A stretch of DNA of 64,000 bases from Escherichia phage MRostami-2023e. The notes beneath the pieces were generated by a model. It searched no databases. It worked only from the letters and a program-made list of their open reading frames with translations, and had not been told where the DNA came from. Location: the sequence record OQ031495; one strand, given 5' to 3'. How positions within the stretch are numbered: position 1 is the first letter of the stretch; each line of letters starts with the position of its first letter. The position numbers and the translations under genes were made by a program. Positions 27,126 to 50,895 of this stretch are shown piece after piece.

Positions 27126-27539
27126 ATGAATATTTCTGAAACTCGCGGTAAATGGTTCAAGATTGTTAAAGAAGATGAAGAACTACAAGTCAAGTTTCCT
27201 GAATTAAAGAAAGATACGATCATCAAGGTAATTGGTACTACTACCGAAGATGGTTATGGCGACCATGGCATTATCGAAGTGATGTTGAACACAGGTGAGA
27301 AACTTTGCATCTATGACCGTGATACTTCTCTTTGGTGCTTCTGGGAATCCCATTCAATAGATGAACTCGAAGAAATTGACCAAGTAGTTTGTGATGGTGG
27401 ACTTGGCGAATTCGAAGGTGAACGTATTTCTTATGCTTTAGCTAAATTAGCCGGACAAGAAAATAACGACGGCTATGAAGGTAACCTGATGCAAGCAGCC
27501 GCAGAATACATTGAATATTTAGAAAGACGTTTAAGTTAA
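27126..27539 (+). CDS. hypothetical acidic protein (137 aa)
   Basis: ORF ending immediately before masked region. Confidence 0.5.
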   Translation: MNISETRGKWFKIVKEDEELQVKFPELKKDTIIKVIGTTTEDGYGDHGIIEVMLNTGEKLCIYDRDTSLWCFWESHSIDELEEIDQVVCDGGLGEFEGERISYALAKLAGQENNDGYEGNLMQAAAEYIEYLERRLS

Positions 27540-27738
27540 NNNNNNNNNNNNNNNNNNNNNNNNNNNNNNNNNNNNNNNNNNNNNNNNNNNNNNNNNNNNN
27601 NNNNNNNNNNNNNNNNNNNNNNNNNNNNNNNNNNNNNNNNNNNNNNNNNNNNNNNNNNNNNNNNNNNNNNNNNNNNNNNNNNNNNNNNNNNNNNNNNNNN
27701 NNNNNNNNNNNNNNNNNNNNNNNNTTAAGTTAATAAAT

Positions 27739-28242: not shown

Positions 28243-30056
28243 AAATTGAAAAAGAAATTGAAGGATTAATTCATAAAACTAATAAAGACCTTTTAAACGA
28301 GAATGCTAATAAAGATTCTCGTGTTTTTCCAACTCAACGGGACCTTATGGCTGGTATTGTGTCTAAGCACATTGCCAAAAATATGGTCCCGTCTTTTATT
28401 ATGAATGCGCATGAAAGCGGAATCATTCACATGCATGATATTGATTATTCTCCTGCTCTTCCATTTACTAATTGCTGTTTAGTCGATTTAAAGGGGATGC
28501 TTGAGAATGGATTTAAATTAGGCAATGCTCAAATTGAAACGCCTAAATCTATTGGCGTTGCTACTGCAATTATGGCACAAATTACCGCACAAGTTGCTTC
28601 ACACCAATATGGCGGAACTACATTTGCGAATGTCGATAAAGTTCTTTCTCCTTATGTTAAACGCACATACGCTAAACATATTGAGGACGCAGAAAAATGG
28701 CAAATCGCTGATGCGTTGAATTATGCCCAATCTAAAACAGAAAAAGACGTATACGATGCATTCCAAGCTTATGAATATGAAGTAAATACTCTCTTTAGTT
28801 CAAACGGACAGACTCCTTTTGTAACAATTACATTTGGTACAGGAACCGACTGGACTGAACGAATGATTCAGAAAGCAATTCTTAAAAACCGCATTAAAGG
28901 CCTTGGTCGTGATGGAATAACTCCTATTTTCCCTAAGCTTGTTATGTTCGTTGAAGAAGGTGTTAATCTTTATAAAGACGATCCGAACTATGATATTAAG
29001 CAGCTTGCTTTAGAATGTGCAAGCAAAAGAATGTATCCTGACATCATTTCGGCTAAGAACAATAAAGCTATCACCGGCTCATCTATTCCTGTTTCTCCAA
29101 TGGGTTGCCGTAGTTTCTTGAGCGTATGGAAAGATTCAACTGGCAATGAAATTCTTGATGGACGCAATAATCTTGGCGTTGTAACACTGAATCTTCCTCG
29201 TATTGCGTTAGATTCTTATATTGGAACACAATTCAATGAACAGAAATTTGCCGAATTGTTCAATGAACGAATGGACCTGTGTTTTGAAGCTTTGATGTGT
29301 AGAATTAGTTCCTTAAAAGGAGTTAAAGCGACTGTTGCTCCTATTCTTTACCAAGAAGGTGCATTTGGGGTTCGTCTTAAACCTGACGACGATATAATTG
29401 AGTTATTTAAAAACGGTAGAAGTTCAGTGTCTTTAGGATACATCGGTATTCATGAATTGAATATTCTTGTCGGCCGTGATATTGGACAAGAAATTTTAAC
29501 TAAAATGAATGCTCATCTTAAACAGTGGACTGAAAGAACCGGTTTTGCTTTTAGCTTGTATTCTACTCCTGCTGAAAACCTGTGCTATCGCTTCTGTAAA
29601 CTTGATACTGAAAAATATGGAAGTGTAAAAGATGTTACTGATAAAGGCTGGTACACTAACAGTTTCCATGTTTCAGTAGAAGAAAATATTACTCCGTTTG
29701 AAAAGATTTATCGCGAAGCCCCATATCATTTCATTTCGNNNNNNNNNNNNNNNNNNNNNNNNNNNNNNNNNNNNNNNNNNNNNNNNNNNNNNNNNNNNNN
29801 NNNNNNNNNNNNNNNNNNNNNNNNNNNNNNNNNNNNNNNNNNNNNNNNNNNNNNNNNNNNNNNNNNNNNNNNNNNNNNNNNNNNNNNNNNNNNNNNNNNN
29901 NNNNNNNNNNNATTTGTTTGTTCTATGTGTGGAGAAACTGATCCTAAAAAGATGAACACAATAAGAAGAACGTGTGGTTATCTTGGAAACCCGAACGAAC
30001 GCGGATTTAATCTAGGCAAAAATAAAGAAATCATGCATAGGGTTAAACACCAATGA
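28239..30056 (+). CDS. nrdD: anaerobic ribonucleoside-triphosphate reductase NrdD (glycyl-radical region masked)
   Basis: 605 aa as T4 NrdD; C-terminal Zn/Cys cluster CSMCGE...RRTCGYLG; continuous ORF, no intron. Confidence 0.9.
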   Translation: MKIEKEIEGLIHKTNKDLLNENANKDSRVFPTQRDLMAGIVSKHIAKNMVPSFIMNAHESGIIHMHDIDYSPALPFTNCCLVDLKGMLENGFKLGNAQIETPKSIGVATAIMAQITAQVASHQYGGTTFANVDKVLSPYVKRTYAKHIEDAEKWQIADALNYAQSKTEKDVYDAFQAYEYEVNTLFSSNGQTPFVTITFGTGTDWTERMIQKAILKNRIKGLGRDGITPIFPKLVMFVEEGVNLYKDDPNYDIKQLALECASKRMYPDIISAKNNKAITGSSIPVSPMGCRSFLSVWKDSTGNEILDGRNNLGVVTLNLPRIALDSYIGTQFNEQKFAELFNERMDLCFEALMCRISSLKGVKATVAPILYQEGAFGVRLKPDDDIIELFKNGRSSVSLGYIGIHELNILVGRDIGQEILTKMNAHLKQWTERTGFAFSLYSTPAENLCYRFCKLDTEKYGSVKDVTDKGWYTNSFHVSVEENITPFEKIYREAPYHFISXXXXXXXXXXXXXXXXXXXXXXXXXXXXXXXXXXXXXXXXXXXXXXXXXXXXXXXXXXFVCSMCGETDPKKMNTIRRTCGYLGNPNERGFNLGKNKEIMHRVKHQ

Positions 30057-31624: not shown

Positions 31625-31807
31625 ATGACAATTGAAGATAAAGAAATTAAGGTTGACCAGTACTATTCTGTCAATGGTAATGCCATACAGATAACCAGAG
31701 TTTCAAGCCTGGATGTTTGGTACCGTTCAATCAAATATCCAGAAATTGGTGAAATGCTTTGTGACCGTGGTATCTTCTGTTCAATTGCGAAGGAAATTAA
31801 GCCATGA
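31625..31807 (+). CDS. hypothetical small protein (60 aa)
   Basis: AGAGGAAAACAAAATG start. Confidence 0.45.
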   Translation: MTIEDKEIKVDQYYSVNGNAIQITRVSSLDVWYRSIKYPEIGEMLCDRGIFCSIAKEIKP

Positions 31808-32052
31808 TTAGTTTAGATTCAAAGAAAGTTGTTCTAACCCTTAAAGTTGATGACGAGCGTCTGGTATTCGTTACCATTTCCGATTTGCATGTTGAAATTG
31901 CTAATGGCGTTCGTACTTATCAAGCAAATAAAACTCAATGGGATTATATCCCGATGTTGACGCTTACTCAGCGTTTAGAATCAATCGGTCTTAAAGACCT
32001 TTCAGTAAGTGAAGTGAATTTTATCAAACGCATTGTATCAATCAACCTCTGA
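31804..32052 (+). CDS. hypothetical protein (82 aa)
   Basis: ATGA-coupled. Confidence 0.5.
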   Translation: MISLDSKKVVLTLKVDDERLVFVTISDLHVEIANGVRTYQANKTQWDYIPMLTLTQRLESIGLKDLSVSEVNFIKRIVSINL

Positions 32053-32059
32053 GGTACTT

Positions 32060-32353
32060 ATGGGTAAAACATATCGTCGTAAAGATTTGAAAGTTCGCGA
32101 TTACGACTATTTTGGTAAGCGTAAAGCTCCTGACGGTGTTAGCCACAAAGACATGGTTGAAAACATTTTCCGCTCAGATAAATGGAAACGTATGAAAGGC
32201 GTTGATTCTGAAGTCAAGAATGAAATGAATCGACAACTCCGCAAAGAAGTTCGTAAGTTGAAAAAAGATGTTTACAGTAAAGAAGATTATGATTATAATA
32301 CTTCTCATACTGAAGCCAAACGTAAAGCTAACGAATGTTATCGTTACAGTTGA
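32060..32353 (+). CDS. hypothetical highly basic protein (97 aa)
   Basis: GAGGT Shine-Dalgarno plus ATG. Confidence 0.5.
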   Translation: MGKTYRRKDLKVRDYDYFGKRKAPDGVSHKDMVENIFRSDKWKRMKGVDSEVKNEMNRQLRKEVRKLKKDVYSKEDYDYNTSHTEAKRKANECYRYS

Positions 32354-32692: not shown

Positions 32693-32755
32693 TAATGTAC
32701 AACGATAGGAAGACATGTTATTATCTTCCTATCGTCTTAAAATGAGTAAAATATC

Positions 32756-32995
32756 ATGGCCCAAGAATTAGATTTTATCAAATTCAAAAAACACCTCGAC
32801 GTTAAAATTGGGGATTCAATTGTTAGGATTGAGTATGACATTTTAACAGATGCTATTACTGTTAGTTGTGATGGAAATAGTTTCAGCTTCGATACAACCG
32901 AAAACAAATACCCAATCTATAAAGGCATCTTTGATATGGGTGTTGATATTACTCCACGTGATACAAATTACTTACTTTTCATGCTTAAAAAATAA
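32756..32995 (+). CDS. hypothetical protein (79 aa)
   Basis: ORF. Confidence 0.5.
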   Translation: MAQELDFIKFKKHLDVKIGDSIVRIEYDILTDAITVSCDGNSFSFDTTENKYPIYKGIFDMGVDITPRDTNYLLFMLKK

Positions 32996-33030
32996 TATAC
33001 AAACTCTTGAGAGATGAGTATAATTCTCTC
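32994..33030 (+). promoter_or_regulatory. promoter candidate with the -10 inside an inverted repeat; second copy of the element at 2352
   Basis: acaaactcttgagag..gagTATAATtctctcgttggataataaa, near-identical to 2355-2400. Confidence 0.45.
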
Positions 33031-33061
33031 GTTGGATAATAAAATAACCGAGGAAAATAAT

Positions 33062-33394
33062 ATGTCTACTAAAATCAAAAACGTAGTTAATTCTTTCGCT
33101 TTCGATAAAGTTGTTGCTCTTCTGGAATCCGGCAATATTGTTACTCCTCAAGTTCTTGACGCGTGGGAATTCCGTCTTTATGAAATCATGCAAAAACACG
33201 ACCAGAAAATTGGACGTAATTCTATTCGTGAAATTCTAGTACAATATATTCTTTCTGAATTTGACGTTGCTGCATTTGGTGTTGAATCTAAAGCTTATCA
33301 GAAACATGAAATCTCTGAAAAGACTATCCGTCGTATGAAAAATCAACGTAAGAAAAAATTCGTTGACCTGAAAATTGTTAAGGCGGTAAAATGA
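33062..33394 (+). CDS. hypothetical protein (110 aa)
   Basis: GAGGAAAATAATATG start. Confidence 0.5.
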   Translation: MSTKIKNVVNSFAFDKVVALLESGNIVTPQVLDAWEFRLYEIMQKHDQKIGRNSIREILVQYILSEFDVAAFGVESKAYQKHEISEKTIRRMKNQRKKKFVDLKIVKAVK

Positions 33395-33956: not shown

Positions 33957-34514
33957 ATGACTGAACAAAAACCTAAAAATAACTATGTGAATAATAAAGA
34001 GCTTCTCGCCGCTATAATCGAGTGGAAAAAGGAGCTCTTAAATAATAAAGACCCAAACAAAATTATTCGTCAGAATGATACCATCGGTTTAGCAATTATG
34101 CTTATCGCCGAAGGCCTGTCCAAACGTTTCAACTTTTCAGGATATACCCAGTCTTGGAAGCAGGAGATGATTGCAGATGGGATTGAAGCCTCTATTAAGG
34201 GACTTCATAATTTCGACGAAACTAAGTACAATAACCCACATGCATACATAACTCGAGCTTGTTTTAATGCTTTTGTCCAACGTATCAAAAAAGAACGTAA
34301 GGAAGTTGCAAAGAAATATAGTTACTTCGTTCATAATGTCTACGACAGTCATGACGATGATATGGTAGCGTTGGTAGATGAAACGTTTATTCAAGACATC
34401 TACGATAAAATGACGCATTATGAAGAATCCGCTTATAAAGCTCCTGGGGCTGAAAAGAAGGAAGTTGTTAGCGATTCGCCTAGTTTGGATTTTTTATATG
34501 AGGATGACAATTGA
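33957..34514 (+). CDS. 55: late-transcription sigma factor gp55
   Basis: [73 protein letters not shown] matches remembered T4 gp55; 185 aa. Confidence 0.95.
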
Positions 34515-34713
34515 CATCTCTAACTACTTAGAAGAACCTTTTGACGAAGCAATCCCTTATTTGGTAAAACTGTTGGGTCGTGAATTTAAAATTAATTTTG
34601 ACATCGACCCTTTGAACCCACATGACGTGTCATTTTCGATAAATGGGACTCCGGTTGAGTACGAGTTCTGCATTGAAGAGGACGGACGTTTTTATTTTAA
34701 TTTAATGAGATAA
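34504..34713 (+). CDS. hypothetical small protein (69 aa)
   Basis: ORF overlapping gene 55 stop. Confidence 0.4.
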
Positions 34714-34714
34714 T

Positions 34715-35038
34715 ATGACTACCGAGATTATTGAAAATAAAGAAGCAGAAGATGCAGTAGCTAAAATGCTACAAGAAATCCAAAAGAAAAATGAAGCTGA
34801 AGCACGTAAAAAATCCGAAAAGATTCTTAAAAAGAATCGTTTTGAACTAAACCGTCTTTATGCTCATGCTCAAGAAGCAGCAATTCAAAACAACTTCGAA
34901 GCTTACGAATATGCTATTAAGAAATCTCGGGATATTCTACGACAACCATATAATGACAAGTTAATTAAAATCCAGTGGGTTACTACTCGTCAGGCTATTG
35001 AGGACATCATTAATGGCGCTAGTTCAAACAAAGTTTAA
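34715..35038 (+). CDS. hypothetical protein (107 aa)
   Basis: ORF. Confidence 0.5.
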   Translation: MTTEIIENKEAEDAVAKMLQEIQKKNEAEARKKSEKILKKNRFELNRLYAHAQEAAIQNNFEAYEYAIKKSRDILRQPYNDKLIKIQWVTTRQAIEDIINGASSNKV

Positions 35039-35219
35039 ACGTCTTAAGCTGAATGCAGGGTTCACCCTTAAATTGGGAGGTCCTCTTTGTGTTAAAATTT
35101 CTGAAAAGGAATATCACGACGGTTCTATTACAGAAATTTGTCCGCCTATTGTAAAGGCAGACCCAAAACAACTCGTATGGGTTGATTCATTTCAAGTTAA
35201 GAAATGGTGGAAACGATGA
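35013..35219 (+). CDS. hypothetical protein (68 aa)
   Basis: ORF overlapping upstream stop. Confidence 0.4.
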   Translation: MALVQTKFKRLKLNAGFTLKLGGPLCVKISEKEYHDGSITEICPPIVKADPKQLVWVDSFQVKKWWKR

Positions 35220-35258
35220 GAGAAATCGATTTAGGCATTTTCTGAGAGGTGCTTATGC

Positions 35259-35432
35259 ATGACGAACATCCCGACTTCTGAAAATTTCGATAAAATCCGT
35301 AAAGGCAAAGCAGAAAGAATGAGACGTTTTAAAGAGTCTTATGATAAAGCTAAAGCCGAAGGAACTATTACGTACAAGCCCATTCGATTTAAAAGTTCAA
35401 ATGAGCCTCTGTACGGTGTACTATGTGGATAG
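35259..35432 (+). CDS. hypothetical small basic protein (57 aa)
   Basis: GAGGTG Shine-Dalgarno; ends in terminator. Confidence 0.4.
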   Translation: MTNIPTSENFDKIRKGKAERMRRFKESYDKAKAEGTITYKPIRFKSSNEPLYGVLCG

Positions 35433-35456
35433 GAACTCTTCGGAGTTCCTTTTTTG
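35432..35456 (+). terminator. rho-independent terminator (UUCG tetraloop)
   Basis: ggaactc-ttcg-gagttcc then T6. Confidence 0.65.
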
Positions 35457-35501
35457 CTTTATAAACGGATGATAGAATGAATTAACTAATGAGGAAATAA
35501 T

Positions 35502-36521
35502 ATGAAAATTTTGCACTTAGGCGATTGGCATTTAGGTGTTAAAGCCGATGATGAGTGGGTTCAATCTATTCAGCTGGATGGAATTAAACAAGCAATAGAA
35601 TATTCTAAGAAAAACGGAATTACTGTATGGATTCAATACGGCGATATTTTTGATGTGCGAAAAGCAATCACACATAAAACTATGGAGTTCGCTCGTGAAA
35701 TAGTTCAAATGCTTGATGATGCTGGTATTACCCTACATACTGTTGTAGGAAACCATGATATGCACTTTAAAAATACTTTAACTCCAAATGCTTCTACTGA
35801 GCTTTTGGCTAAATATCCTAATGTTAAAGTATATGATAAGCCAACTACTGTAGATTTTGACGGATGTCTGATTGATATCGTTCCATGGATGTGTGAAGAA
35901 AATACAGGTGAAATCTTAGAGCACATCAAGACTTCTTCCGCAGCGTATTGTGTTGGTCACTGGGAACTGAATGGCTTTTATTTCTATAAAGGAATGAAGT
36001 CTCATGGGCTTGAACCTGATTTCTTAAAGACTTATAAACAAGTCTGGTCTGGCCACTTCCACACAATCTCTGAAGCTGCTAACGTCAAATATATTGGGAC
36101 ACCATGGACCCTTACTGCAGGTGATGAGAACGATCCGCGCGGATTCTGGGTATTTGACACTGATGTTGAACGTATGGAATTTATTCCTAATGAAACAACA
36201 TGGCATCGACGAATCACTTATCCGTTTAAAGGCAAAATTAATTATTCTGATTATACTAATCTAGCCGTACGTGTTATAGTATCAGAAATTGATTCAGAGT
36301 TGACTAAGTTTGAATCTGAACTTGAAAAAGTAGTTCACTCTCTTCGTATGGTTTCTAAAGTTGATAACAGTGTTGAATCTGATGACGACCAGGAAATCGA
36401 GATTAAATCACTTCAAGATATCATTAAAGAATATATTGACGCGATTCCAGATATCTCAGACGAAGACAGAGAAGCGCTGGTCAAATATTCCAACGAACTT
36501 TATATTGAGGCAACACAATGA
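35502..36521 (+). CDS. 47: recombination endonuclease subunit gp47 (Mre11-like)
   Basis: MKILHLGDWHLG phosphoesterase motif I, GNHD motif; 339 aa as T4 gp47. Confidence 0.9.
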   Translation: MKILHLGDWHLGVKADDEWVQSIQLDGIKQAIEYSKKNGITVWIQYGDIFDVRKAITHKTMEFAREIVQMLDDAGITLHTVVGNHDMHFKNTLTPNASTELLAKYPNVKVYDKPTTVDFDGCLIDIVPWMCEENTGEILEHIKTSSAAYCVGHWELNGFYFYKGMKSHGLEPDFLKTYKQVWSGHFHTISEAANVKYIGTPWTLTAGDENDPRGFWVFDTDVERMEFIPNETTWHRRITYPFKGKINYSDYTNLAVRVIVSEIDSELTKFESELEKVVHSLRMVSKVDNSVESDDDQEIEIKSLQDIIKEYIDAIPDISDEDREALVKYSNELYIEATQ

Positions 36522-37001: not shown

Positions 37002-38686
37002 AATCATTTAAATTAAATCGTGTTCGTTATCAAAATATCATGTCGGTAGGTGGGAATCCTATTGATATCCAATTAGATAAAGTCCAAAAGACATTAATCA
37101 CTGGTAAAAATGGTGGTGGTAAATCTACGATGTTAGAAGCCATCACTTTTGGACTTTTCGGTAAACCATTTCGTGATGTTAAGAAAGGACAAATCATTAA
37201 TAGCACGAACAAGAAAGAGCTCTTAGTTGAGCTTTGGATGGAATTCGATGATAAAAAATACTTCATTAGACGTGGCCAAAAGCCCAATATTTTCGAAATC
37301 TCCGTTGACGGTGTTCGTCTCGATGAATCTGCCAGCAGTCGTGACTTCCAAGAAGAATTTGAACGTAGCATCGGAATGTCATACGCGTCTTTTAAACAGA
37401 TCGTTGTGCTTGGGACGGCAGGGTATACCCCTTTCATGGCTCTTAGCACCCCTGCTCGTAGAAAACTTGTCGAAGACCTTTTAGAAGTCGGCACACTCGC
37501 TGAAATGGATAAAATCAATAAGTCTCAAGTTCGAGAACTTAATTCCCAGGGACAAGTTCTCGATGCCAAGAAAGATGGTGTTATCCAACAAATTAAGATT
37601 TATAACGAGAATATCGAACGTCAAAAGAAATTATCTGGTGATAATGTAGCGCGTCTACAGAATATGTATGACGACCTAGCCAAAGAAGCTCGTTCATTAA
37701 AAGCAGAAATCGAAGAAGCTAATGAGCGACTACTTAATATCGTTCTTGATGAAGACCCTACTGAGGCATTCAACAAGATCGGACAAGAAGCATTCTTGAT
37801 TAAATCTAAAATCGACTCATATAACAAAGTTATTAAGATGTATCATGATGGTGGTACATGTCCTACTTGTGCATCACAGTTGCACCAGGGTGATCCTATT
37901 GTCTCTAAGATTACCGATAAGCTTCACGAATGTAATCACTCATTCGAGCAACTTACATGTCACAGAGATAACCTGAGTGTCCTAGTGGACGAATATAGAG
38001 CTAATGTTAAGACTAAACAGGACCTTGCATCTGATATTCGTACCAAGAAACAAGCAATGATTGCCACTATTGATAAAGCTAAGAAAGTTAAAGCTGCAAT
38101 AGAACAAGCCTCGGCGGAATTTATCGACCATGCCGATGAGATAGCTTTGCTTCAAAAAGAACTTGATAAAATCATTAAAACAAAATCGGATATCGTTCTT
38201 GAAAAATACCATCGTGGTATTATCACAGATATGTTAAAAGATTCTGGTATTAAAGGTGCTATCATTAAAAAATATGTGCCTTTGTTCAATAAGCAGATTA
38301 ACCAGTATCTTAAAATCATGGAAGCTGATTACGTGTTTTCTATTGATGAAGAATTCAATGAATCTATAAAATCACGTGGTCGTGAAGATTTTAGTTATGC
38401 TTCATTTAGTCAAGGTGAAAAGGCACGTATCGATATCGCATTGTTGTTTACATGGCGAGATATTGCTGAAAAGGTTTCTGGTGTTAAAATCAACACGTTG
38501 ATTCTTGATGAGGTTTTTGATGGTGCTGTCGATTCTGAGGCTGTTAAGGCTATAGATACCATTCTTGGAAGTTTACAAAATACTAATGTGTTCATTATCT
38601 CTCATCGAGACCATGACCCTCAACGTTATGGACAACATCTTCAGATGAGCAAAGTTGGACGATTTACGGTAATGACTGTTTCATAA
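36998..38686 (+). CDS. 46: recombination endonuclease subunit gp46 (Rad50/SbcC-like ATPase)
   Basis: Walker A GKNGGGKST, central coiled coil with CPTC zinc hook, C-terminal signature/Walker B LILDEVFD; 562 aa. Confidence 0.9.
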   Translation: MKSFKLNRVRYQNIMSVGGNPIDIQLDKVQKTLITGKNGGGKSTMLEAITFGLFGKPFRDVKKGQIINSTNKKELLVELWMEFDDKKYFIRRGQKPNIFEISVDGVRLDESASSRDFQEEFERSIGMSYASFKQIVVLGTAGYTPFMALSTPARRKLVEDLLEVGTLAEMDKINKSQVRELNSQGQVLDAKKDGVIQQIKIYNENIERQKKLSGDNVARLQNMYDDLAKEARSLKAEIEEANERLLNIVLDEDPTEAFNKIGQEAFLIKSKIDSYNKVIKMYHDGGTCPTCASQLHQGDPIVSKITDKLHECNHSFEQLTCHRDNLSVLVDEYRANVKTKQDLASDIRTKKQAMIATIDKAKKVKAAIEQASAEFIDHADEIALLQKELDKIIKTKSDIVLEKYHRGIITDMLKDSGIKGAIIKKYVPLFNKQINQYLKIMEADYVFSIDEEFNESIKSRGREDFSYASFSQGEKARIDIALLFTWRDIAEKVSGVKINTLILDEVFDGAVDSEAVKAIDTILGSLQNTNVFIISHRDHDPQRYGQHLQMSKVGRFTVMTVS

Positions 38687-38721
38687 ACGCTTTAACACGA
38701 TGTGGTTATAATGACCACATC
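38685..38721 (+). promoter_or_regulatory. middle (MotA-box-like) promoter candidate with hairpin around the -10
   Basis: aaaCGCTTTA box, TATAAT at about 38707-38712 inside 8-bp inverted repeat gatgtggt/accacatc. Confidence 0.4.
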
Positions 38722-42142: not shown

Positions 42143-44854
42143 ATGAAAGAATTTTACTTAACGGTTGAACAGATTGGTGATTCAATTTTTGAACGTTACA
42201 TCGATTCTAATGGCCGTGAACGTACTCGTGAAGTAGAATATAAACCATCACTGTTTGCTCATTGTCCAGAAAGTCAGGCTACGAAATATTTCGATATCTA
42301 CGGTAAGCCGTGTACTCGTAAGTTGTTCGCCAATATGCGTGATGCCTCCCAATGGATTAAACGCATGGAAGATATCGGACTTGAAGCACTTGGCATGGAC
42401 GATTTCAAATTGGCGTATTTGTCTGACACTTATAACTATGAAATCAAATACGACCATACAAAAATTCGTGTGGCTAACTTCGACATCGAAGTAACATCTC
42501 CGGATGGGTTCCCTGAGCCTTCACAAGCAAAACATCCTATTGATGCTATCACCCATTATGACTCAATTGACGACAGGTTCTACGTATTTGATCTATTGAA
42601 TTCTCCATATGGTAATGTAGAAGAATGGTCTATTGAAATCGCTGCTAAGCTTCAAGAACAAGGCGGTGATGAAGTTCCATCTGAAATTATCGATAAAATC
42701 ATTTATATGCCGTTCGATAACGAAAAAGAATTGTTGATGGAATATCTCAACTTCTGGCAACAGAAAACTCCTGTCATTTTGACTGGATGGAACGTTGAGT
42801 CATTTGATATTCCATATGTGTATAACAGAATCAAGAATATTTTTGGCGAATCTACTGCGAAACGGTTGTCACCACATCGTAAAACTCGTGTTAAAGTTAT
42901 CGAAAACATGTATGGTTCTCGTGAAATCATTACATTGTTCGGTATCTCTGTTCTTGATTACATTGACCTTTACAAAAAATTCTCTTTCACAAACCAACCG
43001 TCGTATTCTCTGGATTACATTTCAGAATTTGAATTGAACGTTGGTAAACTGAAATATGACGGCCCTATTTCTAAGCTTCGTGAAAGCAATCACCAACGAT
43101 ATATTTCTTATAACATTATCGACGTGTATCGTGTATTGCAAATTGATGCTAAGCGTCAGTTCATCAACTTGAGTTTAGACATGGGTTATTATGCTAAGAT
43201 ACAGATTCAATCTGTGTTTAGCCCAATTAAAACATGGGATGCTATTATTTTTAATAGCCTTAAAGAGCAGAACAAGGTGATTCCACAAGGTCGTTCGCAT
43301 CCAGTTCAACCTTACCCGGGTGCTTTTGTTAAGGAACCTATTCCAAATCGATACAAATATGTAATGAGTTTCGACCTTACATCTCTGTATCCAAGTATTA
43401 TTCGCCAAGTGAATATTAGCCCAGAAACAATAGCAGGAACGTTTAAAGTAGCTCCATTGCATGATTATATTAACGCTGTTGCTGAACGTCCTTCAGATGT
43501 GTACAGTTGCTCTCCTAACGGCATGATGTATTATAAAGACCGTGACGGTGTAGTTCCAACTGAAATCACTAAGGTCTTTAATCAACGTAAAGAACATAAA
43601 GGTTACATGCTTGCAGCTCAACGTAATGGTGAAATAATTAAAGAGGCATTGCATAATCCTAATCTTTCTGTTGACGAACCATTAGATGTTGATTATCGTT
43701 TCGACTTCAGCGATGAGATTAAAGAAAAGATTAAAAAGTTGTCTGCTAAATCTCTTAATGAAATGTTGTTTAGAGCTCAACGTACTGAAGTTGCAGGTAT
43801 GACTGCCCAAATTAACCGTAAATTGCTTATCAACTCACTTTATGGTGCACTTGGAAACGTTTGGTTCCGTTATTACGATTTGCGTAATGCAACTGCAATC
43901 ACAACATTTGGTCAAATGGCTTTACAGTGGATTGAACGTAAAGTTAATGAATATCTGAATGAAGTTTGTGGTACAGAAGGTGAAGCTTTCGTTCTTTATG
44001 GTGATACAGACTCTATTTACGTATCTGCTGATAAAATTATCGATAAGGTTGGTGAATCTAAATTCCGTGATACTAACCATTGGGTAGACTTCTTAGATAA
44101 GTTTGCACGTGAACGTATGGAACCAGCTATTGATAGAGGTTTCCGTGAAATGTGTGAATACATGAACAATAAACAACACTTAATGTTCATGGACCGAGAA
44201 GCTATCGCTGGTCCTCCACTCGGTTCTAAAGGTATTGGTGGATTCTGGACTGGTAAGAAACGTTATGCATTAAACGTGTGGGATATGGAAGGTACTCGTT
44301 ACGCTGAGCCTAAACTCAAAATCATGGGTCTAGAGACTCAGAAATCTTCGACCCCTAAAGCAGTACAGAAAGCTCTTAAAGAATGTATTCGTCGTATGCT
44401 TCAAGAAGGTGAAGAATCATTACAAGAATATTTTAAAGAGTTTGAAAAAGAATTCCGTCAATTGAATTATATTAGCATCGCGTCGGTATCTTCTGCGAAT
44501 AACATTGCTAAATATGACGTCGGTGGATTCCCTGGTCCCAAATGCCCGTTCCATATTCGTGGAATTCTGACGTATAACCGGGCTATCAAAGGTAATATCG
44601 ATGCGCCGCAAGTTGTAGAAGGTGAAAAAGTATATGTTCTGCCTTTACGTGAAGGAAACCCATTCGGTGATAAATGTATCGCATGGCCTTCTGGTACTGA
44701 AATCACAGATTTAATTAAAGACGACGTACTTCATTGGATGGACTACACTGTTCTCCTTGAGAAGACATTTATTAAACCACTTGAAGGATTCACATCAGCA
44801 GCGAAACTCGATTACGAGAAGAAAGCATCTCTGTTCGATATGTTCGATTTTTGA
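42143..44854 (+). CDS. 43: DNA polymerase gp43 (family B, RB69-type)
   Basis: 903 aa; exonuclease motifs FDIEV and YNIIDV; polymerase motifs DLTSLYPSI, KILINSLYG and YGDTDS. Confidence 0.97.
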   Translation: MKEFYLTVEQIGDSIFERYIDSNGRERTREVEYKPSLFAHCPESQATKYFDIYGKPCTRKLFANMRDASQWIKRMEDIGLEALGMDDFKLAYLSDTYNYEIKYDHTKIRVANFDIEVTSPDGFPEPSQAKHPIDAITHYDSIDDRFYVFDLLNSPYGNVEEWSIEIAAKLQEQGGDEVPSEIIDKIIYMPFDNEKELLMEYLNFWQQKTPVILTGWNVESFDIPYVYNRIKNIFGESTAKRLSPHRKTRVKVIENMYGSREIITLFGISVLDYIDLYKKFSFTNQPSYSLDYISEFELNVGKLKYDGPISKLRESNHQRYISYNIIDVYRVLQIDAKRQFINLSLDMGYYAKIQIQSVFSPIKTWDAIIFNSLKEQNKVIPQGRSHPVQPYPGAFVKEPIPNRYKYVMSFDLTSLYPSIIRQVNISPETIAGTFKVAPLHDYINAVAERPSDVYSCSPNGMMYYKDRDGVVPTEITKVFNQRKEHKGYMLAAQRNGEIIKEALHNPNLSVDEPLDVDYRFDFSDEIKEKIKKLSAKSLNEMLFRAQRTEVAGMTAQINRKLLINSLYGALGNVWFRYYDLRNATAITTFGQMALQWIERKVNEYLNEVCGTEGEAFVLYGDTDSIYVSADKIIDKVGESKFRDTNHWVDFLDKFARERMEPAIDRGFREMCEYMNNKQHLMFMDREAIAGPPLGSKGIGGFWTGKKRYALNVWDMEGTRYAEPKLKIMGLETQKSSTPKAVQKALKECIRRMLQEGEESLQEYFKEFEKEFRQLNYISIASVSSANNIAKYDVGGFPGPKCPFHIRGILTYNRAIKGNIDAPQVVEGEKVYVLPLREGNPFGDKCIAWPSGTEITDLIKDDVLHWMDYTVLLEKTFIKPLEGFTSAAKLDYEKKASLFDMFDF

Positions 44855-44894: not shown

Positions 44895-45530
44895 ATGAAA
44901 ACTACTCCTATTACTATCGCTATTGACGCAATCATAAAACAAGCTTCTTCTTTGGCCGCTATGGCCAAAGTAATTAGTCAAAACCCTGCTCGTTATAATG
45001 CTATTCTAGAAACTCTTCGACGCCCTGGACTTAGTAATTATGAAAGCCGAGTAATTATTACAGGTGTTGGTAAGAATGCTAATATTGCAACTAAAGCGTC
45101 TGAGACATTTGCTTCACTCGGTATCCCGAGTATGTACTTGAACACTGGGCATTATTCTCACGGTGATGCAGGATTTATTGCGCCTAATGATGTGTTGATT
45201 CATATTAGTCGTTCTGGTAAAACTGAAGAAATGATAGGCGTGGCTAAGCATCTTAAAATGATTCGCCCGAACGTCAAACAGATTCTGTTGCATTGTAACC
45301 CAGACATTCCACAAGAATACGAAGCCCTTTTTGATTACTCTTTCTGTACAGGCATCGCGGTAGAAGTTGATGAGAATTCTCTGGCTCCGACTATGTCCAC
45401 TACATTGTTGTTAGCGCTTATCGATACGTTTGCTATCAACCTTTCGTCTGAACGTGGATTTACCTCTAATGACTTCCTTAAGTTCCACCCTGGCGGTGCA
45501 CTAGGTGCCATGTTACGAGGCGAACAATGA
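44895..45530 (+). CDS. SIS-domain sugar-phosphate isomerase, arabinose-5-phosphate isomerase (KdsD/GutQ)-like, no CBS domains
   Basis: ITGVGKNANIATKASETFASLGIPSMYLNTGHYSHGDAGFIAPNDVLIHISRSGKTEE resembles the KdsD SIS core (GxGKS...HGDxG...SxSG). Confidence 0.7.
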   Translation: MKTTPITIAIDAIIKQASSLAAMAKVISQNPARYNAILETLRRPGLSNYESRVIITGVGKNANIATKASETFASLGIPSMYLNTGHYSHGDAGFIAPNDVLIHISRSGKTEEMIGVAKHLKMIRPNVKQILLHCNPDIPQEYEALFDYSFCTGIAVEVDENSLAPTMSTTLLLALIDTFAINLSSERGFTSNDFLKFHPGGALGAMLRGEQ

Positions 45531-45670
45531 AAGCAATAACAATAGGACTTTTACTATTGATGCTTGTCATGACTATCTACTGGAGCTTAACGGCTCCAGT
45601 AATGATTCCAACACTTGTAATTGGATGGATTATGATTGGACTACAAGCAAAGTATGAATGCTTTAACTAG
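45527..45670 (+). CDS. small hydrophobic membrane peptide (47 aa)
   Basis: ATGA overlap with SIS gene stop; MKAITIGLLLLMLVMTIYWSL...; below the ORF-track size cutoff. Confidence 0.35.
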   Translation: MKAITIGLLLLMLVMTIYWSLTAPVMIPTLVIGWIMIGLQAKYECFN

Positions 45671-45711
45671 AATAGTGTACAATACTCCTACTTACCAATG
45701 AGGACCACAAC

Positions 45712-47397
45712 ATGAAAAAAGCTGTTATTCTTGGTGCTGGACTGGCAACTCGTTTGTATCCAATAACGCATCATATTCCTAAGGTGCTTGTTAACTATAA
45801 ACAAGACACTATTCTGAGCAATTTGTATACAATTTATTCTGACCTTGGCGCAGATGAAATTATTGTAGTAGTTCATTCAAAATTTGCTGAAACTGTTCGA
45901 GCTTATTGTGAGCAAGAAGGGTTCAATGTGACTATTCGTACAGTTGATGAAGCGTATGGTTCTGCTTATGCTCTTGCTAAATTACACAAAGATTTAGACG
46001 GCCATAATGTAATTGTTAACTGGTGTGATATTATTCCGGATTTTGGTTCATGGTCTTGGAATGTTAACGCAATCTATGTTAAGGGTGACGAATGTCGATA
46101 TAATTTCGACGGTGAAAATATCACTAACGTAGGTTCAACAGGTGGTAATGTTGTAGGAATTTATCAGTTCAAAGACTGGGAATTCTATATGGGTTCTACC
46201 GATGAGGAAATTCATGAATACTGCAAAGGACGTGATTTCGTAGAATTCCTTTACGGCAGCGCATTCAATAAATCAGAGCTTATGAATCTAATTGATTTAG
46301 GTGATATGCCTAAACTTGAAAAAGCTCATGAAGTTCGTGAACTTAATCGTAGTTTTAATGCAGTTGAAATTGGTGAAGAAACTGTAACTAAATTCGCATT
46401 AACCGAACAGGGTCGAGCTCTTCAGAAAGATGAGATTTCATGGTATCTTAAAGTGAAATCAGATTCAGTTCCTCAGTTAGTTTCTGTTAATGAAAATAAC
46501 TTTGAAATGGAACGCATTAAAGGTAAGCCGGCATTTGAATATATTAAATCAAAATCAAGTCTTGCTCGTCCACAAATTATTGATGCAATTTTAGATGCAC
46601 TGAAATTCAGCACAGACACTTATTTTGTAAGTCCTGAAACTGTTCGCCGTGATTTCACTAAAGAATTCTATACGAAAGTTATTGATCGTTGTGAAAGTAT
46701 TCAACCATTGATTGATTCATTTGGTAAAATCACACATGTGAACTACACTAAGATTGGGCGTCTGAAGCCAATGTTGAAACAAGCTTTAGAACATCTTATT
46801 CGTTATCATAACCGTTCTCAGGGACAGTACTCTGTTATTCACGGTGACCCGAACTTCAGTAATACTATGATTACTGATAACGGCGAAGTCAAGTTTATCG
46901 ACCCTCGTGGATATTTTGGCGAAACCAAGATTTACGGGCCAAAATTGTATGATGAAGCTAAAGTGCTTTATGCTGTTTCAGGTTATGATGAATTCAATGC
47001 TAATCCGGCCTGGGGACAGTTTACTATTGATGAAACAACTTGTAATGTGACTATTAACATCAATCCATTAGTTTACAAATATGGAAAGATGAGTTCGTTT
47101 AACGAGTATCATCATTTGGCAGTGGCAATTATCTGGATTGCATTAGGTGGTTATTTCAAGAATAATCCACTTAAAGCGGTTGCCGCATATTATAAAGGTA
47201 TGGAACTTCTGACTAAGCAATTACGTAACATGGGCCGTGTACTTCAAGACGGCTCTATTAGTTATGACGTAGCAGAACCTGTAACGGCTACTCTGATTAC
47301 AAAAAATCCGGGTAAATGGGTACTAACTGATAAAGAAACTGGTGTTTCCTATCGTCCAATCGGTGGCGATATCACTCATCAATGGGAACGAATCTAA
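45712..47397 (+). CDS. bifunctional sugar-1-phosphate nucleotidylyltransferase (N-terminal) / aminoglycoside-phosphotransferase-type sugar kinase (C-terminal)
   Basis: N-terminal KKAVILGAGLATRLYPIT (GxGxRL NTP-transferase motif); C-terminal HGDPNFSNTMI...KFIDPRGYFG (APH/choline-kinase Brenner motif plus D-x-R/G). Confidence 0.7.
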   Translation: MKKAVILGAGLATRLYPITHHIPKVLVNYKQDTILSNLYTIYSDLGADEIIVVVHSKFAETVRAYCEQEGFNVTIRTVDEAYGSAYALAKLHKDLDGHNVIVNWCDIIPDFGSWSWNVNAIYVKGDECRYNFDGENITNVGSTGGNVVGIYQFKDWEFYMGSTDEEIHEYCKGRDFVEFLYGSAFNKSELMNLIDLGDMPKLEKAHEVRELNRSFNAVEIGEETVTKFALTEQGRALQKDEISWYLKVKSDSVPQLVSVNENNFEMERIKGKPAFEYIKSKSSLARPQIIDAILDALKFSTDTYFVSPETVRRDFTKEFYTKVIDRCESIQPLIDSFGKITHVNYTKIGRLKPMLKQALEHLIRYHNRSQGQYSVIHGDPNFSNTMITDNGEVKFIDPRGYFGETKIYGPKLYDEAKVLYAVSGYDEFNANPAWGQFTIDETTCNVTININPLVYKYGKMSSFNEYHHLAVAIIWIALGGYFKNNPLKAVAAYYKGMELLTKQLRNMGRVLQDGSISYDVAEPVTATLITKNPGKWVLTDKETGVSYRPIGGDITHQWERI

Positions 47398-47783
47398 TGC
47401 ACCGTGTAGAAAACATGCTTAATCTTTATTTTGATGTCGATGATTGTATAACAGAGTGGAATAACAATCGTGATTACGTGAACTTCAAGCCAGACGTCGA
47501 AATGGTGTCTGCCATTAATGCCCTGTATGATGCAGGGCATACCATAACGCTTTACACTGCTCGCGGTATGAAGTCAGTAGGTCCTGGACGTATAGCAATT
47601 GACATTCTCCCAAGTCTGATTCAGAACTTGGCAAACATTGGCTTGAAGTACCATAATTTGCTAACACATAAACCAGTATATGATTGGATTATCGACGACA
47701 AAGCTATGCGTCCTGACGAATTCAAAGCTCTTATGAATAAAGGCGAATTCGAAACATTTAAATCATATAAACCGAATCTATAA
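47397..47783 (+). CDS. HAD-superfamily phosphatase (subfamily IIIA-like)
   Basis: Motif I FDVDDCIT, motif II TITLYTAR, motif III HKP, motif IV IIDDK; TAATG coupling to upstream gene. Confidence 0.65.
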   Translation: MHRVENMLNLYFDVDDCITEWNNNRDYVNFKPDVEMVSAINALYDAGHTITLYTARGMKSVGPGRIAIDILPSLIQNLANIGLKYHNLLTHKPVYDWIIDDKAMRPDEFKALMNKGEFETFKSYKPNL

Positions 47784-47840
47784 TAATTTAAGTAAGACCT
47801 GCAAAAACCATCGCATCAATTAACGTGAGATGCAAAAAAA

Positions 47841-49001
47841 ATGAATACTTTTAAAATCGGAACGAATTTTGATTTAGCTCTTCTTGATAAAATCGTAGAG
47901 CTCAATAAAACTTATCCTAATAGCTTGATAAACGAAGTATACGGCTCTACAAGAGAAATGGCTTTTGTAGCAGCCAGACCTGATTTTAGGCTTCCTGACG
48001 TTGACAAAAAGATGTTAGAAGATTACGTTAAACGTTGTAACGAATTAGGTATTTGCTTTAACTATACACTCAACACGATAAATCCGGGTTCAAAAAGAGA
48101 ACTAGTTGAGTGGAAGAAGAAAGCTATTCAGGACTATGTTCAGTATCTTTGGTCAATAGGCGTATGGCGTATTACTATCGCTAACCCTGTTGTTATGGAA
48201 ATTGTTCGTGAAGTCAATAAAGACATTGAGATTGAAGTTTCAACAATTCTACATGTCGATGCTGTAACTCAAATCAAATACTTGCATGACCAGTATAATA
48301 TCAAAAAGGTCTGCTGTGGAATTCATAAGAACCGTTCAGTTTCTTTCCTGAAGCGTGCAGCAGAGTTTTGCAATAAGAACAATATAATATTTGAAGTTCT
48401 TGTAAATGAGTTCTGTTCTAATGCTGGTAAAGGGTATACAACACATTGTAGCTATCGTGACTCTTGCTATATTTTCCATAGTACTGATGTTACAGCTGAT
48501 GATGCTAAATCCTTAAATGGATATCCTATGCAGCACTGTATTAAAGCTCGTGATACAGACCCATTTAACTGGTTGAGAACTCGTTTTGTTCGTCCACAAG
48601 ATTTGAAACTTTATAATGATATTGGTATCACTCAATTTAAAGTTTCGGGACGTACAGGTAGCACAGACTACATTTTGAAAGTTCTTGAAGCATACGCTTC
48701 TGAAAAGTTTGAAGGTAATTTGTTAGAATTGTGGAAGCCTTTAGAGACCATTTTCACTCTTGAAAATGAGACCGAGTTTTCACATACGGTAAATATTGAA
48801 ACCTCTTTGTTAGATGGCTTTTTAGAAAAAAGGTGGTTCAGACATCCAGATTTCGATTGTGCTAATGAAATCTGCGGGACGACGTGTACATATTGTGAAA
48901 GATATTATAAACGTCAGTTATCTAAAAACGGGTTAGCAGAAAACTCTATATCTATTATTGATATAACTAACTCTGATGACGCTTTGAGGTACCCGGAATG
49001 A
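47841..49001 (+). CDS. Cys-rich protein (386 aa), possible TIM-barrel/U32-like or Fe-S enzyme
   Basis: Cys clusters KVCCGIH, EFCSNAGKGYTTHCSYRDSC and C-terminal CANEICGTTCTYC; fold assignment tentative. Confidence 0.55.
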   Translation: MNTFKIGTNFDLALLDKIVELNKTYPNSLINEVYGSTREMAFVAARPDFRLPDVDKKMLEDYVKRCNELGICFNYTLNTINPGSKRELVEWKKKAIQDYVQYLWSIGVWRITIANPVVMEIVREVNKDIEIEVSTILHVDAVTQIKYLHDQYNIKKVCCGIHKNRSVSFLKRAAEFCNKNNIIFEVLVNEFCSNAGKGYTTHCSYRDSCYIFHSTDVTADDAKSLNGYPMQHCIKARDTDPFNWLRTRFVRPQDLKLYNDIGITQFKVSGRTGSTDYILKVLEAYASEKFEGNLLELWKPLETIFTLENETEFSHTVNIETSLLDGFLEKRWFRHPDFDCANEICGTTCTYCERYYKRQLSKNGLAENSISIIDITNSDDALRYPE

Positions 49002-49237
49002 TTTCTAGAAAAACTTTTAATTATAATCTTAACGAAGAGATTTTGACTATTAAACTGAACACTAACGAACAAATTCTTAAAAAGGCCCTTATGGGCCTGT
49101 TTGAAACCAAAGCGGCTAAAGTGATTAAAGAACCTGTTCAATTGGAATACTACACTGATGCATTCCTTCATAGTGTTCTTGGAAGTATAGATTCTGAAGC
49201 TTTACGTTATATCAACATTGCCAAGAAATTCAAATAA
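48998..49237 (+). CDS. hypothetical protein (79 aa)
   Basis: ATGA-coupled. Confidence 0.45.
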   Translation: MISRKTFNYNLNEEILTIKLNTNEQILKKALMGLFETKAAKVIKEPVQLEYYTDAFLHSVLGSIDSEALRYINIAKKFK

Positions 49238-49260
49238 GCTTTATGAATTGAGTATATAAT
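49237..49260 (+). promoter_or_regulatory. middle (MotA-box-like) promoter candidate upstream of gene 42
   Basis: aaGCTTTA box, about 11-nt spacer, TATAAT. Confidence 0.4.
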
Positions 49261-49278
49261 AACTGTATTGAGGTAAAC

Positions 49279-49995
49279 ATGGGAAAACATAACACAATGA
49301 AATATATCAAAGCCGCAGATTTTCAAACCGCATTTAAAGCAGTCAATCGTGAAATTTTAGAAAACCCGGAATTCGTAACTGATTCTCGTATTGGACGTTG
49401 TAATGAAATTGGGTCTATGACAGTAGTTGTTGACACTCCATCATCATTCAAAATGACCGACCCACGTATTAACCGCATCTCTTATGAATATGCCGAAGAC
49501 TTCTGGAAGTTTATGATTTCTGGTGGTACTGATGCAGAAGAAGCGTTTAAGGCATATCCTAATGTCGCTAAATTTATTTCTAAACCTAAATCAGACGCTT
49601 TGCCTGCAAACTTCAACACTTTCTACGGTCCTCGCATTGCGGCCCAATTACCGGCTCTTCTAAAAGAACTTAAAGAGAAGCCTAACTCTCGAAGAGTTGT
49701 GTTCCAAATTCTAGAAAGTTCTGATCAGGCTTTGCTTGATTCGGACGAAACGCTTGAATATCCATGTACTGACTCAGTGACTTATTATATTCGCGATGGT
49801 AAGCTTTATACCCACTGTCATATGCGTTCTCAGAACTGTGCTGTTGTTATGCAGTTGGATTTTTATCTCCAAGGAAAATTACTTCATTATATCGCTAACG
49901 AATGTGGTGTAGAAGTTGGTGATTATACTCATACCATGGTAAGTGCCCATGTGTTTGAACGTGATTTTGATTATGTTAAAGGGTTTCTTGACTAA
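49279..49995 (+). CDS. 42: dCMP hydroxymethylase gp42 (thymidylate-synthase fold)
   Basis: Position between 43 and uvsX; YPCTDSVTYYIRDGKL and HMRSQN resemble the catalytic-Cys region of T4 gp42; start may be 49297. Confidence 0.7.
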   Translation: MGKHNTMKYIKAADFQTAFKAVNREILENPEFVTDSRIGRCNEIGSMTVVVDTPSSFKMTDPRINRISYEYAEDFWKFMISGGTDAEEAFKAYPNVAKFISKPKSDALPANFNTFYGPRIAAQLPALLKELKEKPNSRRVVFQILESSDQALLDSDETLEYPCTDSVTYYIRDGKLYTHCHMRSQNCAVVMQLDFYLQGKLLHYIANECGVEVGDYTHTMVSAHVFERDFDYVKGFLD

Positions 49996-50894
49996 TGGCT
50001 ATTTTCCGCGTACCTATTTTGAGTATGCGGTCTTATGAAACTGGACAGTATGCTATCCTTAAGGATGGCAACTTCCAACTTCATTTGCACCGTGCTAATC
50101 CAGGCGATGTGATTACATATCCACGTAATGCATCTGATATTAAAGAATGTGAACGTCTTTTCCCAGAATTTAAGTTTGTTCCATTATGGTATAAAGATAA
50201 CGCGTATAACACTCGTAAATATTTCTGGTCTGAAAATGAATTTGTGGTTGATTCATTAATTGCTTATTATGATTGTGATTTTCTAATCACAGATATCACT
50301 GGATATGATGGCGCTTTTGACGTAGAATTCAATTTCAATATCACTGCAGACCCTAATAAACCACGTTTTTATATTGACGAATTCTTAAAAACCGACATGT
50401 TGTCGGTTAATCGTTCACTTCAAACTACTGTGTTGAATGAACGTCAAAAAGAAGTGCTGGTTAACGCAGGTGCAGATGGTAATAAGATTATCGTAACGCA
50501 GAAAGTTATACGTCCTTCCGTCATGCAGCGTCTTGTAGGTGATTTGGCTCCTATTCATCTAGATGGTATTTTTCATCCATTTCGAATTAGTGACCCATGC
50601 TATCGTTTTGAACAAGTTGTTGAATGCGCAATTCAATTAGGTCAACCGCTTTATATAACTGATCCAAATAATAGTTTCGACAGAAATAAGTATCCTGAAG
50701 AAGCGCTGATTCGAATTTTTAATCCAACTAAAACTGAGTACTATCAAATTCTTAAAGGACGTCCGAAGATTCAATATTTCGAAAATCCTGAAGAAGTATT
50801 CCATCCAGGTCTTGGTGAGTTCATCTACTTTAACGCTTTAATTTCTTCGCCGTATAATATACCTAAATACGAAGATGTCGTAATCGAGGAATAA
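49995..50894 (+). CDS. hypothetical protein (299 aa) occupying the T4 beta-glucosyltransferase position
   Basis: ATGA-coupled to gene 42; no recognisable motif. Confidence 0.55.
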   Translation: MAIFRVPILSMRSYETGQYAILKDGNFQLHLHRANPGDVITYPRNASDIKECERLFPEFKFVPLWYKDNAYNTRKYFWSENEFVVDSLIAYYDCDFLITDITGYDGAFDVEFNFNITADPNKPRFYIDEFLKTDMLSVNRSLQTTVLNERQKEVLVNAGADGNKIIVTQKVIRPSVMQRLVGDLAPIHLDGIFHPFRISDPCYRFEQVVECAIQLGQPLYITDPNNSFDRNKYPEEALIRIFNPTKTEYYQILKGRPKIQYFENPEEVFHPGLGEFIYFNALISSPYNIPKYEDVVIEE

Positions 50895-50895
50895 A

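Follow-up and report, generated by a model that had tools for sequence, protein, structure and literature searches.

In phage T4, gp42 makes 5-hydroxymethyl-dCMP, and the hydroxymethylcytosine (hmC) in DNA is later glucosylated by the transferases Agt and Bgt; the gene for the first of these, a-gt, lies between genes 55 and 47. In the stretch of DNA analysed here (64 kb; we refer to the whole of it as the window), the original prediction had found no alpha-glucosyltransferase at this locus, and took this, together with a missing bgt, to mean that the hmC of this phage is not glucosylated by T4-type enzymes. Two questions follow: is the gene truly absent, and what is the modified base if the enzymes that decorate it in T4 are not there?

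Layout of the gene 55-47 interval

All of the genes and elements of this interval are on the + strand. It begins with gene 55 (33957-34514), for which we chose the start annotated in JS09 and RB69; the product, late sigma factor gp55, is 90.7% identical to T4 gp55 over 182 aa and 99.5% identical to that of RB69, and it matches PHROG 234 with E = 4e-68. Four small ORFs follow, each of which is matched in tblastn by its T4 namesake: the homologs of a-gt.5 (34504-34713; 69 aa, DUF5491; E = 1e-14), a-gt.4 (34715-35038; 107 aa, DUF2654; E = 2.5e-32), a-gt.3 (35013-35219; 68 aa; E = 1.7e-29) and a-gt.2 (35259-35432; 57 aa, DUF5486; E = 3e-24). Domain searches returned Pfam PF17595 for a-gt.5 (E = 8e-12), PF10849 for a-gt.4 (E = 1e-27) and PF17588 for a-gt.2 (E = 4.5e-28), and PHROG 1648 for a-gt.3 (E = 2e-34). 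The a-gt.5, a-gt.4 and a-gt.3 products are 100% identical to their RB69 counterparts, and that of a-gt.2 is 94.7% identical. The four ORFs correspond to PHROGs 1169, 951, 1648 and 2140, all of them families of unknown function, and our literature search found no functional data on a-gt.2 to a-gt.5. Their ‘a-gt.N’ names are positional labels, and are no evidence of glucosylation.

The a-gt.2 ORF is followed by an intrinsic terminator, which a terminator scan placed at 35431-35460: an 8-bp stem with a UUCG loop, and then a U-run. The stem-loop itself, AGGAACUC-UUCG-GAGUUCCU, occupies 35431-35450; its fold is valued at -13.9 kcal/mol (z = -3.85), and none of 200 shuffled sequences folded equally well. 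RB69 has the identical hairpin at the same site, where T4 has GGAGC-UUCG-GCUCC and Klebsiella phage Mineola has GGGC-UUCG-GCCC. Since the stem sequences differ among the three while the UUCG loop is constant, we regard this terminator as a real, conserved element. We also considered a TATAAA sequence past the terminator as a late promoter, and rejected it: it matches the consensus at only 6 of 8 positions, and it is not kept in Mineola.

From the a-gt.2 stop to the start of gene 47 there are only 69 nt (35433-35501), with no gene between; this junction, the T4 site of mobB, a-gt and 47.1, differs by a single base from that of RB69. Gene 47 (35502-36521) encodes the SbcD/Mre11-like nuclease subunit, which is 84.7% identical to T4 gp47 and is recognised by Pfam (Metallophos) and as PHROG 100. 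Its first ~135 codons have 73% amino acid identity to RB69, and everything downstream of them is 100% identical, i.e., the window carries a different allele. The ORF coordinates and the terminator scan thus bear out the earlier description of the interval as four small ORFs (57-107 aa) and a terminator; likewise, both the 69-nt gap and tblastn with T4 Agt (see below) agree that no alpha-glucosyltransferase is encoded between 55 and 47.

Relatives of the phage, and comparison with T4 and Mineola

At the DNA level the 55-47 region shares 98% identity with the Escherichia phages TU01 and JS09, and in 146 phage records at least 80% of a 2.7-kb query was covered in a single uninterrupted match. The entire window is collinear with positions 96022-159971 of JS09, at 94.6-98% identity, and the JS09 and RB69 records are both placed in the genus Mosigvirus. 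The reference record of RB69 annotates the same interval as 55, a-gt.5, a-gt.4, a-gt.3, a-gt.2 and 47; the arrangement 55 / a-gt.5 / a-gt.4 / a-gt.3 / a-gt.2 / terminator / 47 is the same in RB69, JS09 and the window. Against RB69 the window is also mosaic, with patches of 73-77% identity that adjoin 100% stretches. By these matches, the source of the window is an RB69-like T-even phage of the genus Mosigvirus.

The T4 transcription order is 55, a-gt.5, a-gt.4, a-gt.3, a-gt.2, mobB, a-gt, 47.1, 47. That is, the four small ORFs and the terminator are common to T4 and the window, whereas T4 has in addition mobB (264 aa, a homing endonuclease), a-gt (400 aa) and 47.1 (46 aa). The original prediction was right that a-gt stands in this interval in T4, but its contrast with ‘only’ small ORFs in the window does not hold: T4 carries the same four, which are therefore not stand-ins for a-gt. 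Instead, gene 47 follows the a-gt.2 terminator without the ~2.3-kb segment that separates the two in T4. Similarity to T4 continues past the a-gt.2 stop and the hairpin as far as GCTTTATAAA, and restarts just upstream of gene 47, a few bases short of its ATG. Mineola (Jiaodavirus) has gene 55, a-gt.5 to a-gt.2, a CUUCGG hairpin and gene 47 in the same order as the window; unlike the window, it has a-gt (its Agt is 66% identical to that of T4) between two hairpin modules, and this without mobB or 47.1.

Search for T4-type glucosyltransferases

The window and the complete JS09 genome (169,148 bp) were searched with T4 Agt, T4 Bgt, T4 mobB, T4 47.1, the RB27 (T2-type) beta-alpha-gt and Mineola Agt, by tblastn, by phmmer and, using a two-sequence Agt HMM, by hmmsearch, with filters off; for the part of the genome that is outside the window, the absence of agt and bgt was judged on JS09 and RB69 as proxies. 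Nothing significant was obtained in the window or in JS09 with T4 Agt, T4 Bgt, RB27 beta-alpha-gt or Mineola Agt. Across both targets the best E values for Agt (T4, Mineola and the HMM) ranged from 0.015 to 1.4, and marked short chance stretches; the best for Bgt, a protein of the Pfam family PF09198, was 1.8, and that for beta-alpha-gt was 0.83. In complete JS09, none of these four glucosyltransferase queries gave an E below 0.34. The lowest value of all, E = 0.015, belongs to a tblastn match of T4 Agt at 3152-3331, a 69-aa stretch inside a 207-aa homolog of e.5; we rejected it as chance because e.5 is also present in T4, and because the match is not repeated in JS09. As positive controls, both T4 Agt and T4 Bgt are recognised by Pfam (T4 Agt against PF11440, E = 3e-260).

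These results agree with an earlier BlastP analysis of RB69, which detected no T4-type glucosyltransferase (Thomas et al. 2018, PMC6024577). The tblastn check with T4 Agt and Bgt that had been proposed with the original prediction therefore finds no homolog in the window or the complete JS09 genome; bgt is indeed missing as a sequence homolog, and the statement that this phage has no T4-type glucosylation enzymes is upheld by our searches and by the RB69 literature alike. In a wider tblastn survey, Agt homologs were present in 657 of 50,697 phage records, led by those of Escherichia/Shigella and Klebsiella phages. Their identity to the query was at least 90% in about 500 records, 60-80% in 143 (Klebsiella and Raoultella phages, among the matches listed) and <60% in 10.

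A 5-hydroxy-dCMP synthase in the place of gp42

Neither the window nor JS09 contains an ortholog of T4 gp42. The sole relative is a ThyA homolog of 238 aa, encoded on the + strand at 49279-49995 in the place of T4 gene 42, and its identity to gp42 is 25%. This protein has a Pfam Thymidylat_synt domain; it is identical to RB69 gp48 at 238 of 238 residues, and to the PDB entries 9iqc and 9ir2 at 235 of 238. In an alignment with E. coli ThyA and T4 gp42 the catalytic Cys is kept, and two ThyA residues are replaced, L143 by E and N177 by D. From its identity to RB69 gp48 we annotate the protein as a dCMP 5-hydroxylase (5hodCMP synthase): RB69 gp48 is a flavin-binding enzyme that makes 5-hydroxy-dCMP, not 5-hydroxymethyl-dCMP, and together with a phage dNMP kinase it gives rise in vivo to 5-hydroxy-dC in DNA, with incorporation of 18O2 (Lee et al. 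2026, PMC13326640). In RB69 virion DNA, cytosine is fully replaced by mono- and di-arabinosylated 5-hydroxycytosine (PMC13326640).

Bearing in mind this identity, hmC is almost certainly absent from the DNA of the window phage. This removes the premise of the original prediction, which took hmC to be the base that escapes glucosylation.

The gene cluster between gene 43 and uvsX

The synthase gene belongs to a cluster (44895-51444) that is bounded by gene 43 (42143-44854) and uvsX (51543-52715). Its proteins are 98-100% identical to RB69 gp45-gp55, and are encoded in the same order. The cluster is in the same window as the 55-47 interval, ~10 kb downstream of it.

The first gene of the cluster (44895-45530) encodes an arabinose-5-phosphate isomerase of the RB69 gp55 type (Pfam SIS, E = 6e-10; 99.5% identical to RB69p055), its role being taken from PMC13326640. 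At 45712-47397 is a bifunctional sugar-1-phosphate nucleotidyltransferase/kinase of 561 aa, 98% identical to both of the RB69 gp52:53 halves, with an N-terminal Pfam NTP_transferase domain and weak kinase matches at residues 344-409; this protein is also of the HY126 AfhE type. Then comes a HAD-like sugar phosphatase (47397-47783; RB69 gp51, AfhF type), which is 98.4% identical to RB69p051, has no Pfam match and takes its role from the literature. A Peptidase-U32-like protein (47841-49001; RB69 gp50) follows, with a match to Pfam PF01136 (E = 7e-11) and 99.5% identity to RB69p050. Downstream of the synthase gene are those for a protein of 299 aa (49995-50894; RB69 gp46:47), described below, and for a thymidylate-kinase-like nucleotide kinase (50896-51444; RB69 gp45; 98.9% identical to RB69p045), the role of which is likewise from the literature. 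A homolog of gp56, the dCTPase that excludes ordinary dCTP, is encoded outside the cluster at 59518-60039, in an ORF that corresponds to JS09_0154. All of these genes are on the + strand.

The set of enzymes for UDP-arabinose supply, i.e., arabinose-5-phosphate isomerase, kinase/nucleotidyltransferase and HAD phosphatase, is thus present in the window, at 98-99.5% identity to RB69. In the window the 299-aa glycosyltransferase and the 561-aa nucleotidyltransferase/kinase are single intact ORFs, whereas both are split in the RB69 record; the split RB69 ORFs have been put down to sequencing errors (PMC13326640). The genes for the synthase and the 299-aa protein directly precede uvsX, a position that is occupied in T4 by gene 42 and then b-gt. 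Since these two proteins fill the T4 42/b-gt position, the ‘missing bgt’ of the original prediction is better described as a positional replacement than as an empty site.

The 299-aa protein and a second transferase

The 299-aa protein (49995-50894) has no Pfam match, and none in the PDB by sequence. A 108-sequence profile of its family, A1, found nothing in the PDB, and hhalign of family A1 against T4 Agt and Bgt returned probabilities of <1% (0.6% for Bgt). With sequence and profile searches null, comparison of folds is the only informative approach to this protein. An AlphaFold2 model built on the 108-sequence alignment has a pLDDT of 95.8 and a pTM of 0.90; a single-sequence model (pLDDT 36) was unusable. 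By the fold of the former model, the 299-aa protein is a GT-B glycosyltransferase. The modelled structure shares its superfamily fold with Agt, and is no closer to Agt than it is to dozens of cellular enzymes. As to an agt or bgt homolog elsewhere, which the original prediction had named as evidence against itself, no sequence homolog came to light; what the window does contain is a protein with the GT-B fold alone in common.

The gene for a second transferase would be located beyond the window: the homolog of RB69 ORF003c in JS09, JS09_0177 (JS09 167653-168753), is ~7.7 kb past the position of the window's end, and matches the structure of an HY126 glycosyltransferase (9iqz) with E = 8e-250. 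We consider the 299-aa protein, proposed to be arabinosyltransferase 1, and the ORF003c homolog as candidates for the arabinosyltransferases, and not as Agt or Bgt orthologs.

Discussion

We propose that the phage from which the window derives has an RB69-type arabinosyl-5-hydroxycytosine pathway instead of the hmC glucosylation of T4, a reading that we hold with a probability of roughly 93%. In support of it we contribute the anatomy of the locus and the cluster, the absence of Agt, Bgt and beta-alpha-gt, the protein identities to RB69 and HY126, and the GT-B fold; the enzyme activities and the DNA chemistry are from the literature. Given these identities, we infer that the window phage carries the same DNA modification as RB69. 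The pathway would begin with the flavin-dependent ThyA homolog (49279-49995), which would hydroxylate dCMP to 5-hydroxy-dCMP; phage kinases and DNA polymerase would then insert 5-hydroxycytosine in place of cytosine. The isomerase, the kinase/uridylyltransferase and the HAD phosphatase (44895-47783) are predicted to produce UDP-arabinofuranose, from which GT-B arabinosyltransferases would put one or two arabinoses on the 5-hydroxyl; the candidate for the first transfer is the product of 49995-50894, and that for the second is the ORF003c homolog. In the absence of hmC as a substrate, a-gt would have no role, and only the four conserved small ORFs and the terminator are present between 55 and 47.

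The logic of this pathway is in part that of T4: in both, a ThyA-family enzyme would supply a C5-oxygenated dCMP, a dCTPase is encoded, and glycosylation by GT-B enzymes comes later. On the other hand, T4 gp42 is a hydroxymethylase, to which the window enzyme is just 25% identical, and T4 attaches glucose, drawn from the UDP-glucose of its host; the window phage would attach arabinose, made by a phage-encoded route.

Of the alternatives, we first consider one in which hmC is still made by a gp42-type hydroxymethylase, and is left bare or is modified in a way foreign to T4, for example as arabinosyl-hmC. Mass spectrometry had in fact led to a proposal of arabinosyl-hmC in RB69 (Thomas et al. 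2018, PMC6024577), and the ThyA homolog shares both of its specificity substitutions with T4 gp42. Nevertheless, we judge this alternative to be improbable: there is no gp42 ortholog, and the only relative is identical to the flavin-binding RB69 enzyme that produces 5hodC in vivo. Furthermore, NMR and LC-MS of RB69 DNA place the arabinose in an ether linkage directly on the C5 oxygen (PMC13326640). As these two studies are summarised in PMC13326640, He et al. 2026 (HY126 crystal structure and reconstitution) and Mahler et al. 2025 both agree with 5hodC. In the light of the 5-hydroxy-dC data, the 2018 assignment of arabinosyl-hmC is superseded.

It is very improbable that agt or bgt resides elsewhere in the genome, and that glucosylation persists. 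The window does cover no more than 64 kb of a genome of about 169 kb, and T-even genomes are mosaic, as the 73-77% patches beside 100% stretches in the comparison with RB69 illustrate. Against this, the best E in complete JS09 was 0.34 for four queries, RB69 has no such gene either (PMC6024577), and there is no RB69-type record among the 40 Agt matches listed, while those Agt matches that have an informative product name are all annotated as alpha-glucosyltransferase; moreover, the enzyme would lack a substrate without hmC. Finally, we give a negligible likelihood to an error of assembly or sequencing. On either side of a-gt, T4 and Mineola have similar hairpin + GCTTTAT modules, which could in principle collapse as a repeat; against this, the same uninterrupted arrangement recurs in 146 independent phage records, including RB69 and JS09, and the junction differs from that of RB69 by one base in 91.

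The arabinosyl-5-hydroxycytosine reading leaves the history of the locus to be considered. In T4 and in Mineola, a-gt is flanked on each side by a module that consists of a CUUCGG hairpin and GCTTTAT. The window has one such module, which aligns to both of the T4 copies, with a score of 57 to the copy after a-gt.2 and 40 to the copy after a-gt; shuffled sequences score 19 +/- 3.8, with a maximum of 37. The identity between T4 and the window is 82-89% for gp55, gp47 and gp46, and that of either to Mineola is 65-78%. A three-taxon parsimony argument (T4, window, Mineola) had suggested loss of a-gt in Mosigvirus; we withdrew this conclusion after a wider and more sensitive census, which showed that a-gt is lacking, with a spacing of about 1.5 kb between 55 and 47, in many other genera (examples are phiR1-RT, KM16, SP18, WG01, Pet-CM3-4 and some Klebsiella phages). 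The a-gt gene may have been lost repeatedly, or it may have been gained laterally at this one site.

More speculatively, the hairpin + GCTTTAT modules might have served as substrates for recombination, allowing a-gt to be cleanly excised or inserted, in which case the hybrid module of the window (35431-35475) would be a scar; we think this unlikely. If it were true, the junction would be a recombination hot spot, which would fit with the divergent allele of gene 47, the difference from RB69 beginning exactly at the junction. The swapping of DNA-modification genes among T-even phages would also then be linked to portable regulatory cassettes.

The absence of a-gt from the 55-47 interval is real, and it is ordinary for RB69-like phages. 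Neither that absence, nor that of b-gt, nor the arabinose pathway is new, all having been published (Thomas 2018, Mahler 2025, He 2026, Lee 2026). The lack of a-gt and b-gt could be read from the RB69 record from the time that this was deposited; an explicit discussion of it appeared in 2018, and the mechanism was elucidated in 2025-2026. The use of our analysis is for annotation: where an interval of this kind occurs together with the gene 43-uvsX cluster, DNA that contains arabinosyl-5-hydroxycytosine is to be expected. DNA of this kind is resistant to most restriction enzymes, and is harder to sequence and to clone; arabinosyl-5-hydroxycytosine and glucosyl-hmC also differ in their behaviour towards type IV restriction, DNA glycosylases and CRISPR.

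Gene 47, which encodes the SbcD/Mre11-like nuclease subunit (window 35502-36521, + strand), carries a sharp mosaic patch over its first ~400 nt (35500-35900), the 5' edge of which coincides exactly with the junction between the a-gt.2 homolog and gene 47 (35433-35501). Within this patch, DNA identity between the window and RB69 is 73-77%, versus 97-100% on either flank; identity to the complete collinear relative JS09 remains 94-95% in the same segment. At the protein level, residues 1-135 of gp47 show 73% identity between the window and RB69, 89% between the window and T4, and 67% between RB69 and T4; over residues 136-339, the window and RB69 proteins match completely (100%). To judge from these alignments, the odd allele seems to belong to RB69 and not to the window.

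The same junction, where T4 carries mobB, a-gt and 47.1, contains a two-codon mini-ORF (ATG AAT TAA; 35470-35480) at the site of the T4 gene 47.1 start, and the DNA upstream of it resembles its T4 counterpart (window, GATAGAATG; T4, GATATAATG). Gene 47.1 itself is absent from the 55-47 intervals of both the window and Klebsiella phage Mineola; it therefore appears to be specific to T4-type phages. Mineola does have a-gt. In the 3432-3500 segment of its locus, the deposited a-gt start, a TTG at position 3447, lies in the U-run belonging to the terminator hairpin of a-gt.2. Since the tblastn match to T4 Agt starts only at 3501, this annotated start is probably ~18 codons too early.

Two further genes bear on the RB69 reference record. 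The bifunctional nucleotidyltransferase/kinase gene (45712-47397; 561 aa) and the gene for the GT-B glycosyltransferase proposed as arabinosyltransferase 1 (49995-50894; 299 aa) are each one uninterrupted ORF in the window, and each is recorded as two in RB69 (RB69p053/052 and RB69p047/046, respectively). The published explanation for the divided RB69 ORFs is sequencing error (PMC13326640), and the single ORFs of the window lend it independent support.

Two RB69-like records, OR352945.1 (AV115) and OM386662.1 (ESCO47), cover only 68-71% of our 55-47 query, with matches broken into two pieces spanning ~2.1 kb and ~1.3 kb; hence, this interval holds different or extra DNA in some relatives. GC content of the window (1-kb bins) dips to 0.24-0.31, versus ~0.37 elsewhere, at 6-7, 10-12, 13-14, 15-16, 17-18, 27-28 and 29-31 kb. 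These bins match interruptions of megablast collinearity with JS09 (6466-6729, 10777-11218, 13080-13283, 15154-15417, 17288-17629, 27539-27725 and 29735-29912), and the segments are probably hypervariable small-ORF or intergenic DNA. Short patches of only 77-85% identity to RB69 or JS09 also occur at 31700-32100, 32700-33100 and 38500-38700, surrounded by sequence of 97-100% identity; these look like fine-scale allelic mosaicism between Mosigvirus isolates.
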